This document shows positions 20,751 through 61,123 of a DNA stretch of 64,000 nucleotides, piece after piece. The stretch is from NCBI GenBank assembly GCA_964636295.1, contig CAZWQY010000004.1:42677-106676 (forward strand), in the 5' to 3' direction. The notes beneath the pieces were generated by a model, which was not told where the DNA came from, made no database searches, and saw only the letters and a program-made list of their open reading frames with translations. The stretch is from an uncultured Lentisphaeraceae bacterium (GTDB lineage: Bacteria; Verrucomicrobiota; Kiritimatiellia; RFP12; UBA1067). Made by a program: the position numbers and the translations under genes. The stretch's first letter is position 1, and each line of letters starts with the position of its first letter.

Positions 20751-20859
20751 ACGCAATCGTCCGAGCGTTGTCAACGGGAGACGCAAAGGAAAGTTGTATC
20801 ATCTCGTGGCGCAGTTTCAAACAGAAGATACGTGCCCTAACAGCTGCGAAGTCTCGCAC

Positions 20860-20971
20860 CAGAAGACCAGCCCTTGCACAGACCCTCGGCCGTCCCGTCT
20901 ACTACACGAGGGCGTACGCCTCCTACGAGACGGGCGCGGTCGAGAATGTCAACCGCATCATCAGGCGATAG
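20860..20971 (+). pseudogene. C-terminal remnant of an IS30-family transposase
   Basis: ...LGRPVYYTRAYASYETGAVENVNRIIRR* resembles the IS30 C-terminus (vYF..P...WqRGsNENtNGLlRqy); no intact upstream catalytic region. Confidence 0.4.
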
Positions 20972-20998
20972 TTCTGAAGGGGGTCGGGAGGTTCTTTT

Positions 20999-21178
20999 AA
21001 ACCACGAATTGACACAGATTGGCACGGATTAGAATGACCCCCCAAAATGCATGGGACGGAGTTGAAACGCATGAGAGAGAAAAAGAATTCCGCACTGAAT
21101 TCTCATTTCGTGATGGACAACGACCAAAACCCAGCGCAAAGAATTCTGACAAATCCGTGTTAATCCGTGAAATCCGTT
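20999..21178. mobile_element. MITE-like element of the CACGAAT/ATTCGTG family (copy E1)
   Basis: Left arm CCACGAATTGACACAGATTGGCACGGATT, right arm AATCCGTGTTAATCCGTGAAATCCGTT in inverted orientation, ~115 bp non-coding core. Confidence 0.6.
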
Positions 21179-25383: not shown

Positions 25384-26681
25384 AACGGCATCTGATTGGC
25401 ATTGGCGGCGTCGGCATGAGCGCGCTCGCGACGACGCTCCTGAAACTGGGCGACACCGTCACGGGCGCGGATCGGACGCGGGACACGCCTAACGTTCGCT
25501 TTCTTGAGTCGCTGGGCGTCGCGGTCTTTCCGGACGACGGCAGCGGCATTGACGCAACGACGGACGAGGTCATCGTCTCGACGGCCATCGAGGAGACGAA
25601 CGCGGGTCTGCAGGCGGCGCATGCGCGCGGCATCCCCGTCACGCACCGGGCGAAGGCTCTCGCACGCGCGTTGCAAGGTCACAGGCTCGTCGCCGTCGTC
25701 GGGACATGCGGCAAATCGACGGTAACGGCCATGCTGGGGCATATCCTGTCCGAATGCGGGCTGGATCCGCTCTGCGTGAACGGCGCGAACGTGCCGGGGT
25801 GGGACGGCGCCGTCCGATTCGGACAGGGCGCGTATGCCGTCGCGGAAGTGGACGAAAGCGACAAGTCGCTCGTCGCGTTCAGCCCCTATGCCGCCATTGT
25901 CACCAACGCCTCGGCCGACCACTACTCCAAGGAGGAGATGGACGCGGTCTTCGATGCCTTCATCGCGGACTGCCAAGGACCCGTCATCGACGGCAGAGGC
26001 CCGTTGGACACCTGGACATTTGGGCTGTTGGAGGTTCCCGTGCCGGGACAGCACAACCGGCAAAACGCCGAACTGGCCGTGCGCATGGCCGTCGCGCTCG
26101 GCGTGGCCCCCGAAGCGGCCGTCGCCGCGATGAAGACGTTCAAGGGCGTCGAGCGTCGCCTCCAGCGCATCCTCCCATCAAACGTCCAAACCTCCAAACT
26201 CCCAAACCTCCAAACGTCCAAACCTCCAAACTCCCAAACTCCTAAACCGTCCCCTGCCGTCTACGACGACTACGCCCACAATCCGGAAAAGATTAAGGCC
26301 ATGTGGACGACGCTCGCGGCGGAGTATCCGCAGGGCCTCTGCGTGATCTGGCGGCCGCATGGATATGCCCCGCTTCGCAAGATGTGCGCCGCGCTGGCGA
26401 CAATGTTCGCCGAGACGATCCGTCCGCAGGACAGGTTGCTGCTTCTGCCCGTCTACGACGCGGGCGGCACGACCGACCGCTCGATCAATTCGGATGCCTT
26501 GGCCAAGGCGATTGCCGACGCAGACGCCGCCGTCGGCGCGCGCGTGTCAGTTGTCGCCGATCTGGACGCGGCGCAGGACTGGTGTGCCGCGCATCCGACG
26601 GCATTCGGCTGTTTCGTGACATGCGGCGCACGCGACCCAGGGCTGCCCGTGCTGGCCCAACGGCTCGCGCAGATGGGCTAA
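25380..26681 (+). CDS. murC: UDP-N-acetylmuramate--L-alanine ligase family protein (MurC/Mpl)
   Basis: 433 aa; IGIGGVGMSALA, VVGTCGKSTVTAM, DDYAHNPEKI; GTGA overlap with the upstream gene. Confidence 0.8.
   Translation: MKRHLIGIGGVGMSALATTLLKLGDTVTGADRTRDTPNVRFLESLGVAVFPDDGSGIDATTDEVIVSTAIEETNAGLQAAHARGIPVTHRAKALARALQGHRLVAVVGTCGKSTVTAMLGHILSECGLDPLCVNGANVPGWDGAVRFGQGAYAVAEVDESDKSLVAFSPYAAIVTNASADHYSKEEMDAVFDAFIADCQGPVIDGRGPLDTWTFGLLEVPVPGQHNRQNAELAVRMAVALGVAPEAAVAAMKTFKGVERRLQRILPSNVQTSKLPNLQTSKPPNSQTPKPSPAVYDDYAHNPEKIKAMWTTLAAEYPQGLCVIWRPHGYAPLRKMCAALATMFAETIRPQDRLLLLPVYDAGGTTDRSINSDALAKAIADADAAVGARVSVVADLDAAQDWCAAHPTAFGCFVTCGARDPGLPVLAQRLAQMG
26178..26249. repeat. CCAAACCT-family tandem array, 9 x 8 nt = 72 nt, in frame inside the murC-like gene
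   Basis: TCAAACGT CCAAACCT CCAAACTC CCAAACCT CCAAACGT CCAAACCT CCAAACTC CCAAACTC CTAAACCG, translated SNVQTSKLPNLQTSKPPNSQTPKP. Confidence 0.9.
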
Positions 26682-26687
26682 GGCGAC

Positions 26688-27863
26688 ATGACGGTCATTC
26701 ATCTCGTTCCGGCGATGGAGCAAGGCGGCGTCGAGACCGTCGTCTGCGACTTGAATCGCGCGCTTGTCCGAGCCGGATGGCGATCGGTCGTCATCTCGAA
26801 AGGCGGGCGGCTCGTGGCGCAGGTGCGCGGCGACGGCGGCGAACACCTCGCGCTTGACCTCAAGTCGAAGAATCCGCTGACGGTACTCGTTCGCGCGTGG
26901 CGCCTGCGAAAGGAGTTGCGTGCGTTGGCGACACGCGGCGAGCCGCTTCTCGTCTGCGCACATTCGCGCGTTCCGGCCTGGCTGTTCATTCTCGCCCGCC
27001 GTCTGGATGCGTTCATTCGCCCATCCGTCCATTCGCGCGCTCGGCCTCCTGCCCATTCGATCATTCGATCATTCGACCATTCGATTATTTCTTCTCTCCC
27101 CTTCATCACATACGCACACGGGGCGAATTCCGTCTCGCGCTATTCGGCGGTGATGACAAAAGGCGACCGCGTCATCACGCCCTCGCGATTCCTCGCGGAC
27201 TATCTGACGCGGAACTATCCGACTGCAGACAACCTCCGCGCACGCCTCCGCGTCATTCATCCAGCCGTTGACTTCGCGCGTTTTGACCCGGCGGCTCTCG
27301 ATGCGCATGTCGTGGCGCAACTGCGGCACGACTGGGGACTCAAGCCGGACGACCGCGTCGTCATGGCCGTCGGACGCATCACGCCGCTCAAGGGCTTCGA
27401 CCATCTGATTCGCGATCTCGCGGGGAAATTGGACGTTACGCCCGACGCGGCGTGGGGCGACGCCCTGCGCGCGCCGCAGACGAAGCTTGTCCTCGTGGGC
27501 GGGGCCGATCGGGACAAGACGGGTCTTCTCGCCGCGCTCAAGGCCCTCGCCGCCTCGCTCGGCGTGGCAGACCGCGTCATTTTCGCGGGAGCGCAGACGC
27601 ACATTCCCGAATGTCTCTCTCTGGCCGATCTCGTCGTTTCGGGGAACGTGACGAAGCCCGAATCGTTTGGGCTTTCGGTCGCCGAAGCGTTGGCAATGAA
27701 CCGTCCCATCCGCCTCCTGCGACGCTTCGGCGGCGCGGCGGAGATTCTCGACGCGGTCGCGGCAACGCAACAGCCGACGCGGCGCGAAGCCGTTCGCGCG
27801 CTCTGCGATTTTGATATAATGTCTCGAAAGACAGTGGCCGTTTACGAGGAGCTTGTCAGGTGA
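26688..27863 (+). CDS. Glycosyltransferase family 4
   Basis: 391 aa; MTVIHLVPAMEQGGVETVVCDLNRAL..., C-terminal E-x7-E type region (ESFGLSVAEALAMNRP). Confidence 0.85.
   Translation: MTVIHLVPAMEQGGVETVVCDLNRALVRAGWRSVVISKGGRLVAQVRGDGGEHLALDLKSKNPLTVLVRAWRLRKELRALATRGEPLLVCAHSRVPAWLFILARRLDAFIRPSVHSRARPPAHSIIRSFDHSIISSLPFITYAHGANSVSRYSAVMTKGDRVITPSRFLADYLTRNYPTADNLRARLRVIHPAVDFARFDPAALDAHVVAQLRHDWGLKPDDRVVMAVGRITPLKGFDHLIRDLAGKLDVTPDAAWGDALRAPQTKLVLVGGADRDKTGLLAALKALAASLGVADRVIFAGAQTHIPECLSLADLVVSGNVTKPESFGLSVAEALAMNRPIRLLRRFGGAAEILDAVAATQQPTRREAVRALCDFDIMSRKTVAVYEELVR
27013..27092. repeat. CCATTCGA-family 8-nt array (about 10 units) inside the GT4 coding sequence
   Basis: TCATTCGC CCATCCGT CCATTCGC GCGCTCGG CCTCCTGC CCATTCGA TCATTCGA TCATTCGA CCATTCGA TTATTTCT. 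Confidence 0.85.
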
Positions 27864-29074
27864 TACATTTCAACAGACCCTACATGACCGGAAAGGAGAC
27901 GGGCTACATCCGCCAGGCCGTTTCGGGCGGCAAGATTTCCGGGAACGGCGAATTCACGAAGCGGTGCCAGGACTACTTCGAGCAACGCTACGGCTTCCGC
28001 AAGTGCCTGCTGACGACATCCTGCACAGACGCGCTTGAAATGGCGGCGATTCTGACGGGCGTTGGGCCGGGCGACGAGGTCATCGTCCCCTCCTACACGT
28101 TCGTCTCCTCCGCGCTCGCATTCGTCCGCCAGGGCGCGACCATCGTCTTCGCCGACAGCCGCGCCGACCAGCCCAACATCGACGAGACGCAGATCGAGGC
28201 CCTGGTCACGCCACGGACGAAAGTGATTGTCGTCGTCCACTACGCGGGCATCGCCTGCGAGATGGACACGATCATGGCGATTGCGAATCGCCACAACCTG
28301 ATCGTCGTCGAAGACGCGGCCCAGGCCATTGACAGCTTCTACCGGCCTCCGTGCGAAAATTCGCGCGCCTGCGCGGGCCGCGCGCAATCCACGGTTCGCG
28401 GTCGTCCCCTCGGCTCGATCGGTCATCTCGCCGCGTTCTCCTTCCACGAGACGAAGAACATCATCTCCGGCGAGGGCGGGCTTCTCGTCGTCAACGACGA
28501 GCGGTTTGTGCGTCGCGCCGAAATCATCTGGGAAAAGGGAACGAACCGCGCCGAGTTCTTCCGTGGAGAAGTGAACAAGTATGGCTGGGTGGACACGGGG
28601 AGTTCTTTCCTGCCGACGGAGATCGTCTCGGCGTTCCTCTGGGCGCAGCTTGAGCACCTCGACGAAATCCAAACCGAGCGCAAACGGCTCTGGCAGCGGT
28701 ATTGGGACTTCTTCTCCGCCCTCCAGACATCCCAGCGTCCAAACACCCCAACCGTTCCCGTCATCCCGCCCTGCGCGACGAACAACGCGCACATGTTCTA
28801 TCTCCTGTTCCCGAGCCTCGCGGCGCGAACGGACTTCATCGCGAAAATGCGGGCGCGGGACGTTCTGACGGTCTTCCACTATCTGCCGCTCCATTCGTCG
28901 GACTTCTACCGAACCTACCGCGAGACACACCGGCCGTCGGGCGCGGCGGCGGAACGCGCGTTGCCGAACTGCGACCGCTATGCCGACACGCTCGTGCGTC
29001 TGCCGCTCTACTGCGGCCTCGCGCCCGACCAGGACAAGGTTCTCGCCGCCCTCAAGGACTCGTTGGAATCTTGA
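27860..29074 (+). CDS. wecE: dTDP-4-amino-4,6-dideoxygalactose transaminase (DegT/WecE family)
   Basis: 404 aa; MIHFNRPYMTGKETGYIRQAVSGGKISGNGEFTKRCQDYFEQRYG..., FSFHETKNI PLP-lysine motif; GTGA overlap with GT4. Confidence 0.88.
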   Translation: MIHFNRPYMTGKETGYIRQAVSGGKISGNGEFTKRCQDYFEQRYGFRKCLLTTSCTDALEMAAILTGVGPGDEVIVPSYTFVSSALAFVRQGATIVFADSRADQPNIDETQIEALVTPRTKVIVVVHYAGIACEMDTIMAIANRHNLIVVEDAAQAIDSFYRPPCENSRACAGRAQSTVRGRPLGSIGHLAAFSFHETKNIISGEGGLLVVNDERFVRRAEIIWEKGTNRAEFFRGEVNKYGWVDTGSSFLPTEIVSAFLWAQLEHLDEIQTERKRLWQRYWDFFSALQTSQRPNTPTVPVIPPCATNNAHMFYLLFPSLAARTDFIAKMRARDVLTVFHYLPLHSSDFYRTYRETHRPSGAAAERALPNCDRYADTLVRLPLYCGLAPDQDKVLAALKDSLES

Positions 29075-29078
29075 GCAG

Positions 29079-29590
29079 AAATCCACGAATTCACACGAAT
29101 TGGCACGAATGAGATGGCAGAAAAACTGATCGGCAAAGACGAGGTCTACGACATCGTTGGCGCGTGCCTTGACGTTCATAACACATTGGGGCATGGCTAT
29201 TTAGAGGCCGTCTATCAAGAAGCCCTTGAACTCGAACTCAAACTACGCGGCATCCCGTTTGTACGAGAAAAGGAGATTAAAATCCAATACAAGGGGACGG
29301 CATTGTCAAAGCGTTATTTTGCTGATTTTGTCTGCTTCGACCGTATCATCATCGAAACGAAAGCCGTCTCAGCACTTCTGCCCGAACATCAGGCACAAAC
29401 GCTGAATTATCTTCGCGCGACGGGGCTAAAAGTCGCCGTGTTGGTGAATTTCGGAAGTTCACAAGGACTCCAATGGAAAAGACTCGTCTTCTGAACAAAC
29501 AGGCGCATGGGAGCGTCCATGGATCAACGCGAATAGACACGAATGCGAAAAACCTCATTCGTGAGGATTCGTGTAAATTCGTGGATAATC
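29079..29590. mobile_element. CACGAAT/ATTCGTG inverted-arm element carrying a GxxExxY gene (copy E2, candidate autonomous form)
   Basis: Left arm CCACGAATTCACACGAATTGGCACGAATGAG abuts the ATG; right side has hairpin CACGAATG-N10-CATTCGTG, then ATTCGTGAGGATTCGTGTAAATTCGTGGATAATC. Confidence 0.55.
29114..29494 (+). CDS. GxxExxY family protein (PD-(D/E)XK-like)
   Basis: 126 aa; GYLEAVY motif, ...FADFVCFDRIIIETKAV... nuclease-like core; AT-richer than its neighbours. Confidence 0.85.
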   Translation: MAEKLIGKDEVYDIVGACLDVHNTLGHGYLEAVYQEALELELKLRGIPFVREKEIKIQYKGTALSKRYFADFVCFDRIIIETKAVSALLPEHQAQTLNYLRATGLKVAVLVNFGSSQGLQWKRLVF

Positions 29591-30612
29591 CGAGCCTCGC
29601 CGTTCGTGACGTTGCATTCAGCTGCGATGACAACGGCGCGAAGTTCCTTTGCGTGACAGTCGGCTCGCTTCTCGCCCACGACACGGGCGCAGCACCCCTT
29701 CGCATCAACGTCTTCGAGGGCTTCGGCGGACACTCCGCCGCGAGCAAGGCGGCGTTGCGCGCCGTCGTGGACGCCTTCAACGAAAAGGCCGCCCGCGCGA
29801 ATCCCGGCCTTTCCGAGGCCAAGTATTCCGTCCGCTACCACAACATCGAGCCGTTTCTCGCGCCCTACGCGGACATCCTGAAAGACCGCCCCGGCTCACG
29901 CTGGAACGTCTTTACGTGGACGCCGATCTTCACGCCGCAGATCCTCTCGGACGCGACGGGGAATGTTGCGCATTTCGACATCGACATGCTCTTCAACGAC
30001 GACGTGTCGAAAATCCTGGACTTGGATCTTGGCGACGACCTCATCGCCGCCGTCGCGGAATACGACAAGGGCGACCCCGTCATCACCGAAGCCGTCTGGG
30101 GCACGGGCATCCTGCCGCCGTCCGTCACGCGCTACTTCAACACGGGCACGCTCGTCTTCAACACGGCGGCGTGCCGAGCCGAAAAGACGTGGGAGAAGAT
30201 TCTCGCCTGGTATCGCGACCACTACGCAATCGCCGACCGCATCGAGCAAGACGCCTGGAACGCGCTCTACCATGACCGGACGCGCCTCCTGCCGCTGCGG
30301 TGGAATTTCCATGACCGCCTGATCAAAAGCTACATGACGCGCGACCTCCACGCGCCGCTCTGGCAGGGCAATCCGCCGAAGGAGTGCCTGGAGGCCGCGC
30401 TCGATCCGGCCATCCTTCACTTCTGGGGTCCGAAGAAGCCGTGGAAGCCCTGCCATCGTCCCTATCGAAAACTCTATCACGCGGCCATGACGGCCGTCGG
30501 GCAAACGCCGCCGAAGGAAGAACTCTTTGGCTGGTGGCACGACGGGCAGACGCGACGACATCTCGCACACCTCCGCCGCCGTCTTCAATCCCTTTTGGAG
30601 GGCGAACAATGA
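29581..30612 (+). CDS. Glycosyltransferase family 8 (LPS glycosyltransferase-like)
   Basis: ORF 29473..30612; the N-terminal 36 codons are translated repeat, so the start is placed at in-frame GTG 29581; DIDMLF and AWNALYH-type GT8 motifs. Confidence 0.75.
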   Translation: MDNPSLAVRDVAFSCDDNGAKFLCVTVGSLLAHDTGAAPLRINVFEGFGGHSAASKAALRAVVDAFNEKAARANPGLSEAKYSVRYHNIEPFLAPYADILKDRPGSRWNVFTWTPIFTPQILSDATGNVAHFDIDMLFNDDVSKILDLDLGDDLIAAVAEYDKGDPVITEAVWGTGILPPSVTRYFNTGTLVFNTAACRAEKTWEKILAWYRDHYAIADRIEQDAWNALYHDRTRLLPLRWNFHDRLIKSYMTRDLHAPLWQGNPPKECLEAALDPAILHFWGPKKPWKPCHRPYRKLYHAAMTAVGQTPPKEELFGWWHDGQTRRHLAHLRRRLQSLLEGEQ

Positions 30613-59103: not shown

Positions 59104-59136
59104 GAATCGTGGGGACAGGCCCCAGGGGGAGGGCTG

Positions 59137-59265
59137 AAACCACGAATTTCACGAATCTCACGAATGAAGGTGGAGGTGAAAATCAACCACGGATTAACAC
59201 AGATTGGCACGGATTCGTGCCCATTCGTGAAATTCGTGGATAGACAATCGCGGGGACAGGCCCCA
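59137..59265. mobile_element. CACGAAT/ATTCGTG family element (copy E3), no cargo
   Basis: CCACGAATTTCACGAATCTCACGAATG...CCACGGATTAACACAGATTGGCACGGATTCGTGCCCATTCGTGAAATTCGTGGATAGACAATCGCGGGGACAGGCCCC. Confidence 0.6.
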
Positions 59266-60870: not shown

Positions 60871-60950
60871 GTCTTGCGGAATCTGTCCCCAAGGGAGGAG
60901 AAGAGGAGACCTCACCCCTCCGCCTTGTCCACGGTAGCCAACCGTTGTTT

Positions 60951-61062
60951 AACCACGAATTTCACGGATTCGCACGGATTTGCGGGAATCCTTCAAAATA
61001 AATCCATTTGATTTGTGATGATTCGTAAGATTCGTGGATAGGCAATCGTGGGGACAGGCCCC
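60951..61062. mobile_element. CACGAAT/ATTCGTG family element (copy E4), no cargo
   Basis: AACCACGAATTTCACGGATTCGCACGGATTT...GATTCGTAAGATTCGTGGATAGGCAATCGTGGGGACAGGCCCC; the terminal ~32 nt are near-identical to the E3 terminus. Confidence 0.6.
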
Positions 61063-61123
61063 AAGGATTTCCCGCCAGGATCTGTCCCCAAGGTGGGGCG
61101 AGGGCGAGGAACGACCAAGCCCG

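Follow-up and report, generated by a model that had tools for sequence, protein, structure and literature searches.

The window, by which we mean the whole 64-kb stretch of DNA that was analysed, contains four elements (E1 to E4) whose arms are built of CAC(G/A)(G/A)AT heptads that follow one another at 9-10 nt, start to start. There are exactly five forward clusters of these phased heptads in the window, together with the matching reverse ones, and an earlier note on this DNA, which had proposed E1 to E4 as members of one family, was right in the position that it gave to each. The exact word CACGAAT occurs 24 times in the window compared with 11.0 +/- 3.5 times in shuffled sequence, where no shuffle reached 24, and the surplus is located in the element clusters. 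E2 carries a gene between its arms and is itself placed between wecE and a GT8 gene, two genes of cell-envelope sugar metabolism, in a coupled operon. The features are as follows.

20999..21178, no strand assigned: E1, gene-less, 3+3 heptads, with a core of ~120 nt unlike the interior of E2
29059..29080, forward strand: E2 left junction, in which the wecE tail is remodelled (DSLES, stop) and an 8-nt linker follows, diverged from the empty allele
29081..29110, forward strand: E2 left arm, terminal ATC and three CACGAAT heptads (29084, 29094, 29104) at 10-bp phase
29114..29494, forward strand: GxxExxY / PDDEXK_3 nuclease gene, 126 aa, inside E2
29528..29544, forward strand: two inner forward heptads of E2, CGCGAAT (29528) and CACGAAT (29538), which pair with the right arm to form a 3' hairpin
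29557..29586, forward strand: E2 right arm, three ATTCGTG heptads (29557, 29567, 29577) and GAT
29587..29607, forward strand: E2 right junction, encoding the GT8 N-terminal extension NPSLAV
59137..59265, no strand assigned: E3, a hairpin without a gene, its forward array doubled and its tail GGGGACAGGCCCC, missing in the strain of run X20
60951..61062, no strand assigned: E4, a hairpin without a gene, its right arm degenerate and its tail GGGGACAGGCCCC as in E3

The termini of E2 form a 10-nt inverted repeat, ATCCACGAAT at 29081-29090 and ATTCGTGGAT at 29577-29586, and a GTG at 29581, within the last right-arm heptad, is in frame with GT8. Since two extra forward heptads (29528 and 29538) precede the right arm, the 3' end of E2 is a small hairpin of its own. 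In E1 the forward heptads CACGAAT, CACAGAT and CACGGAT (21003, 21013, 21023) face two ATCCGTG heptads (21153 and 21163) and a degenerate ATCCGTT. E3 has forward triplets at 59141-59165 and 59188-59214 with a single reverse triplet at 59213-59238, and E4 has a forward triplet at 60954-60979 with a degenerate reverse triplet at 61011-61036. The tail GATAG(A/G)CAATCG(C/T)GGGGACAGGCCCC that the note had reported is common to E3 and E4. Hairpin folding gave z values of -6.3, -3.9 and -2.6. No Rfam match at gathering score was found anywhere in the window, and promoter and terminator scans yielded nothing useful; the sense strand is without a terminator-like T-tract.

Other repeats are also present. 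The short repeat GGGGACAGGCCCC occurs separately at 59110-59123, 59241-59254 and 61049-61062, with reverse copies near 60884 and 61083; it flanks segments that vary between strains (E3, and a 199-nt unit with E4) and its contig depth is very high. Upstream of E1, the intervals 20770-20837 and 20872-20973 reach 10-40x the surrounding contig depth in all four runs and so contain further repeats.

The GxxExxY gene and its product

The ORF at 29114-29494 begins 3 nt (GAG) past the last left heptad of E2 and is the only GxxExxY ORF in the window. It matches TIGR04256 (GxxExxY) with E 2.6e-42 and 143.8 bits against a cut-off of 35, and PF13366 (PDDEXK_3) with E 2.2e-40 and 138.1 bits against a cut-off of 22. 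The gene has a GC content of 48% and a GC3 of 53% compared with 63% and 83% for wecE, in agreement with its earlier description as an AT-richer GxxExxY gene. The G28, E31, Y34 motif and the catalytic residues E31, D71, E81 and K83 are all intact in the protein. Among 68 GxxExxY sequences there is no variation at E31, Y34 or K83, and at least 90% have D71 and an acidic residue at position 81.

An AlphaFold2 model of the protein (pLDDT 94) was compared with the PDB using Foldseek. The best match was Cas4 SSO0001 (4ic1; E 1.9e-4, TM 0.60), followed by LHK-Exo, lambda exonuclease and RecE, and on this model, which has the alpha-beta-beta-beta-alpha-beta core, the protein is predicted to be a nuclease of the PD-(D/E)XK fold, similar to Cas4, RecB and lambda exonuclease. 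No solved structure of any sequence-level relative was found in the PDB. An HUH/Y1 transposase domain is absent from the protein, whose Pfam and NCBIfam matches are PF13366 and TIGR04256 alone, and an identity as a RAYT is therefore rejected. We know of no strand-transfer chemistry for a 126-aa PD-(D/E)XK nuclease. The family is large, with 15,770 clusters at 50% identity (E <= 1e-3), and a survey of the PD-(D/E)XK superfamily in 2012 listed the function of PF13366 as unknown (PMC3424549). Some members of a representative library have tandem GxxExxY domains in two-domain proteins of 250-295 aa (P0243, P0259, P0294 and others).

Allelic states and age of the wecE-GT8 cassette

The wecE-GT8 junction is polymorphic in relatives, which agrees with the mobile origin that the note had suggested for E2. 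The species itself has an empty allele: contigs from the DNA runs X16 and X20, with ~97.6% identity to the window across 1 kb per side, skip 29059-29607 and have instead 15 nt, AGCCGTGGCGTGAAG, by which the GTGA overlap is restored. In these contigs wecE reads ...ALKEAVA-TGA and overlaps the GT8 start GTG-AAG-GAC (MKDVAF), a classic case of GTGA coupling. The junction is also empty in distant relatives (GT8 76-81% identical), where the 4-nt overlap is ATGA in L213 and GTGA in L216-L219 and the GT8 N-terminus is M(R/K)DVAFSCDD; the presence of the overlap in these relatives indicates that the empty state is ancestral. The empty allele is without any arms, so the arms and the gene entered together, as a unit. 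In the filled allele of the window wecE ends in DSLES-TGA and GT8 is lengthened to (M)DNPSLAVRDVAF, with an in-frame GTG inside the last heptad. A third state is seen in L212 (GT8 89% identical), which has derived flanks like those of the window and only CCACGAAT-CAA-CACGAAT between them, its GT8 start being an ATG created by the second heptad. This allele shows that deletion footprints do arise.

Filled and empty alleles show deep divergence over about 20 nt beside the indel, and elsewhere they differ by ~2.4%. We infer that this divergence reflects old, tightly linked alleles, the surrounding DNA having been homogenised by recombination. The right flank, AGC CTC GCC GTT CGT GAC (S L A V R D), is similar to TCC CTC GC|GTG AGG GAC, the ancestral wecE tail and GT8 start, and could represent a long target duplication, albeit with a weak match of 8 in 18 positions to the empty allele. 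A consistent target-site duplication, another mark of the mobile family envisaged in the note, was not found, the E2 junctions being remodelled, E3 and E4 being bounded by 14-nt and at least 10-nt copies of the GGGGACAGGCCCC repeat and the inserts of the relative L222 (below) showing none.

A metatranscriptome contig spans the cassette. From an ATG in the last GxxExxY codons (conserved Q-W codons) the frame is open through the 3' hairpin into GT8 (29473-29607 in the window), and the same open frame is found in L228 and L229 (3360-3480) and in L231 (3366-3490); gene callers take its ATG as the GT8 start. In L231 (3366-5663) GT8 and a downstream lipid A acyltransferase-like gene are fused in one ORF of 765 aa.

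From the 41 collection blocks that list the exact window protein, 23 contigs were read, and in all of them the wecE-GT8 junction is the only site at which it was found. Its closest homologues (79-82% and 70% aa identity) occupy the same junction in L226, L228, L229 and L231, the flanks of whose cassettes are 82-89% identical in nucleotide sequence to those of the window. Because homologues at 70-82% aa identity hold the same junction in related species, E2 is an old resident that has been kept largely vertically, and no move of the gene-bearing unit was seen in this lineage among contigs with the exact protein or these homologues. The related cassettes share one layout, in which one or more forward arrays are followed by the gene and then by a full 3+3 hairpin; three inner heptads lie at the equivalent place in L228 and L231, compared with two in the window.

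Both the gene and the words have been subject to selection. The dN/dS of the GxxExxY gene is 0.08-0.15 and its catalytic residues are retained, and in the orthologous cassettes, a small sample, heptads are 93% identical compared with 58% for the spacers, from which it follows that the words themselves are conserved in place. Nucleotide identity between the window and L228 is 89% for wecE, 86% for GT8 and 78% for the GxxExxY gene; between the window and L231 the values are 84%, 82% and 70%, respectively. Synonymous divergence is three times as high in the GxxExxY gene (dS 1.33) as in wecE (0.43), and the GC3 of the GxxExxY gene is near 53% in all three species compared with 80-85% for its neighbours. 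The high dS and the unshifted GC3 hint at recombinational replacement or at special constraints.

Gene-less hairpins and the breadth of the gene-arm association

The gene-less arms are the active, dynamic part of the family: they are multi-copy, vary between strains and are found in frame within genes of relatives. Over E1 and E3 the summed depth of contigs reaches 10-14x that of the flanks in DNA runs X15, X16 and X20, a figure to which other species may contribute; it is higher still in RNA run X13, and assemblies break there. These same three DNA-run strains have no copy of the gene at >=85% nt identity, and the arms are abundant in them nonetheless. E3 is missing in the X20 strain, where 59110 is joined to 59252 with 14 nt of GGGGACAGGCCCC shared, and the 199-nt segment that holds E4 is missing in the X15 strain (joint 60881 to 61081, at least 10 nt shared). 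Because copies of another repeat lie at the ends of both segments, the difference between strains may reflect either a deletion by recombination or an insertion. In L222 (1501-2637) GT8 has in-frame hairpin inserts of 75 nt and 90 nt that its close relative L224 does not have, and in L220 near-identical in-frame hairpins are found twice in wecE (88-1497) and once in GT8 (1501-2613), the units being translated as SHESxRIDTN...VREDSCQFVA. A loop of the window's own wecE (28340-28410, coding RPPCENSRACAGRAQSTVRGR) contains decayed TCCGTG, ATTCGCG and CCACGG words; these may be an old, decayed element, given that an intact in-frame hairpin of L220 stands at the same place.

We followed the association in both directions. 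In a scan of 596 Gb of species-representative genomes, the exact triple-heptad arm was found in at least 120 genomic stretches compared with the ~4 that would be expected by chance, as calculated for uniform base composition. Among the matches listed, the taxa include Verrucomicrobiota, Planctomycetota, Acidobacteriota, Bacteroidota, Chloroflexota, Pseudomonadota, Leptospirales, a CPR bacterium and an archaeon; a forward array has a reverse partner within 150 nt in 109 of 261 cases; and a GxxExxY gene is present in 5 of 120 genomic stretches, in all five of which it is directly bracketed by arms. No other gene family was found to be bracketed by arms among the matches listed, and none of these matches could be assigned to the genome of the window. 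The viral contigs of IMG/VR contributed at least 120 arm stretches, and among the matches listed none of the 120 contains a GxxExxY gene. Some of these contigs (L290, L250 and L253) have 4-6 triple-heptad arms within ~14 kb and no GxxExxY gene in the stretch.

In the reverse direction, a three-sequence subfamily alignment found 80 metagenome loci, and 74 GxxExxY loci were examined. These belong to a single subfamily, whose identity to the window protein is 31-44%. At least three phased CRCNRAT words precede the gene at 55 of the 74 loci and at least three, inverted, follow it at 56 (74-76%); the pairing of gene and arms is general in this metagenome sample and is seen also in the five genomic cases. 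At least two phased words are present on at least one side at 70 loci (95%), compared with about 1% of background windows; for three or more phased words the background is 14 in 1860 windows (0.75%). Strictly, what repeats is a decamer, CRCNRAT followed by RRA. Word variants are shared between the two arms of one cassette (84% against 67% under the null), but spacers are not (57% against 52%). Position 5 of the word (A or G) requires 2 changes on the protein tree compared with 19.7 in shuffles, and the CACGAAT cassettes of a Nitrosomonas and of a Verrucomicrobiaceae genome, found independently, both fall in the A clade; the branch of the window protein is too long for placement. The word variant therefore tracks the protein tree, in joint descent, a pattern that simple linkage alone would also give. 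Some loci (L070 and L231) have the order hairpin, gene, hairpin. No description of the pairing of GxxExxY genes with heptad arms was found in Rfam or in the searchable literature.

Interpretation of the cassette and its hairpins

The earlier note saw in E2 the autonomous member of a MITE-like family. The part of this proposal that concerns the gene-less copies stands, since they are multi-copy and strain-variable; the part that concerns E2 does not, because E2 occupies one site and has not moved recently. The related proposal, that the gene-less copies are derivatives of E2, found no support: the E1 core has no similarity to the E2 interior (score 16 against a shuffle mean of 16-17), so that E1 is rejected as a deletion derivative. 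A classical autonomous transposon is likewise rejected, given a gene-bearing copy at a single site in all contigs read, an E1 that is not derived from E2 and the fact that no consistent target-site duplication was found.

We favour, with moderate confidence, an explanation in which E2 is a resident GxxExxY cassette accompanied by many non-autonomous hairpins, in the manner of REPIN/RAYT systems but with a Cas4-like nuclease that would bind, cut and mobilise the hairpins in trans. This reading fits better than does an autonomous transposon with MITE derivatives, because the gene is old and at one site, the E1 core is unrelated, no target-site duplication is consistent, most arms are free of the gene and arms are found in strains that lack it. 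On this view the cassette inserted a single time, in a forebear of several species of gut Kiritimatiellae, and precisely where the wecE stop and the GT8 start overlap by 4 nt; the two frames would have been repaired around it by a new stop for wecE and by a GT8 start in or near the right arm. Thereafter the gene and its words would have been kept by purifying selection as the spacers drifted. Identical words make up many gene-less hairpins, which vary between strains and in some cases lie in frame inside genes. We infer that the GxxExxY nuclease is responsible for binding, cleavage and mobilisation in trans: most likely it reads the phased words, whether as a multimer that lines one face of the duplex or on the folded hairpin, and its cuts would let hairpin units be copied or moved and, on rare occasions, the cassette as a whole.

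It is unlikely, although with some real chance of being correct, that the arms are independent repeats with a host or structural role (REP-like protein sites, hairpins that stabilise or process RNA, or terminator-like modules) that other machinery spreads and within which GxxExxY merely lies. Such a role would sit well with the good folding of the hairpins, with the metatranscriptome contig through the cassette, with the persistence of arms in gene-lacking strains and with the 96-100% of arm stretches, viral ones included, that have no nearby GxxExxY gene among the matches listed. It does not account for the phased words beside 95% of the sampled GxxExxY genes against a background of about 1%, for the lack of any other bracketed gene family among the matches listed, or for a word variant that follows the protein tree; moreover, it is the words, beyond mere pairing, that are kept at the orthologous site, and the Rfam search and the sense strand offered neither a match nor a T-tract.

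PD-(D/E)XK homing endonucleases exist, I-Ssp6803I being an example, and E2 resembles free-standing homing endonuclease genes in being a small PD-(D/E)XK gene at one conserved site that varies between close strains. We regard it as improbable, however, that E2 is a homing-type element whose nuclease cuts gene-less hairpins or empty sites as its targets, the break being repaired by copying in the gene. The intact empty allele of strains that are ~97.6% identical, a deeply diverged flank beside the indel of the kind expected for old linked alleles or co-conversion, and a gene dS above that of the flanks would all be compatible with homing. Yet the empty wecE-GT8 allele has no arms at all, so that arms and gene came in together, arm homology extends for only ~30 nt with mismatched spacers, and every one of the closest homologues sits at one site, with no case seen of homing into another hairpin. 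Unlike free-standing homing endonuclease genes, E2 carries inverted word arrays of its own, is associated with no intron or intein and has ends with a large gene-less population.

We consider it very unlikely that a separate site-specific recombinase moves the cassette through hairpin sites similar to the attC sites of integrons, with GxxExxY as cargo. The imperfect hairpin 3' of the ORF and the hairpin, gene, hairpin loci, which are the expected product of two-site recombination, recall such a system, but neither in the window nor in relatives does a recombinase gene adjoin the cassette, and the cargo is always of one family among the matches listed; to our knowledge, 10-bp-phased triple words are unlike any attC or dif site. 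That the heptads cluster by chance, or that the cassette is an artefact of assembly, can be rejected: no shuffle reached the observed heptad count, independent assemblies of many samples gave an identical cassette in every contig read, and the exact arm is matched at least 120 times in genomes where ~4 matches are expected.

The resident-nuclease reading invites comparison with known systems. Rickettsia palindromic elements (RPEs) and other intragenic MITEs place in-frame hairpins in the surface loops of proteins, and the gene-less hairpins that lie in frame within wecE and GT8 orthologues are similarly read as peptides. We know of no cognate enzyme gene for RPEs, whose words and architecture are unrelated to those of the heptad hairpins. 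The intervening sequences of 23S rRNA may bear ORFs, the S23p four-helix-bundle genes; like these, E2 is a small gene within a stem-forming inverted repeat that leaves the transcribed unit of the host intact, but its protein family is different, it is not in rRNA and its arms are phased words. With MITEs and their autonomous parents it shares terminal inverted repeats that are common to gene-bearing and short copies, and presence or absence according to strain; it differs from them in having no transposase of a known family and no consistent target-site duplication in the E2 family, in an E1 core that does not come from E2 and in being fixed at one site over speciation. REPIN/RAYT systems consist of REP-associated tyrosine transposases with their own repeats (PMC3116915, PMC3337134, bioRxiv 10.1101/2021.07.10.451892). 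As in these, a resident enzyme gene is flanked by its own short inverted repeats, many gene-less inverted-repeat hairpins are built of the same repeat, the gene seems to persist for long periods and largely vertically at one locus, and the repeat variant goes with the enzyme lineage. In contrast, the E2 enzyme is a 126-aa protein of predicted PD-(D/E)XK (Cas4-like) type rather than an HUH/Y1 transposase, each E2 arm consists of three 7-nt words at 10-bp phase instead of one REP palindrome, and the heptad arms are found across many phyla and on viral contigs.

Phased heptad arrays as a fixed DNA partner would give PF13366 / TIGR04256 a directly testable substrate. If the nuclease does drive the hairpins, the REPIN/RAYT life-style would have had a second, independent origin on a different enzyme, in a system that spans many phyla and can write short peptides into proteins. 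Tentatively, the GxxExxY family at large may consist of word-reading nucleases of cross-phylum REPIN-like elements that drive the copying of hairpins into intergenic DNA, viral contigs and protein loops. The wecE-GT8 locus is a good model because close relatives offer four states of it: empty, full cassette, deletion footprint and diverged orthologous cassettes in which selection on the words can be seen. To the general association it adds long-term residence at an orthologous site, selection of words in place, an empty allele within the species, a footprint allele, and gene-less copies that lie in frame in the adjacent genes of relatives.

Two in-frame arrays of other words lie upstream of E2 in the window. 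A Mur-ligase-like gene contains approximately nine 8-nt units (CAAAC-N-TC) at 26176-26250, translated as QTSKLPNLQTSKPPNSQTPKPS; in contig L001 the calls for this gene give two ORFs, of 277 and 126 aa. A GT4 glycosyltransferase gene contains a CATTCG(A/C) array of period 8 at 27004-27095, translated as HSIIRSFDHSIISS; this array is probably a multi-copy repeat, since most of the short cassette contigs (mainly Logan) stop ~2 kb upstream of GxxExxY, at about its position.
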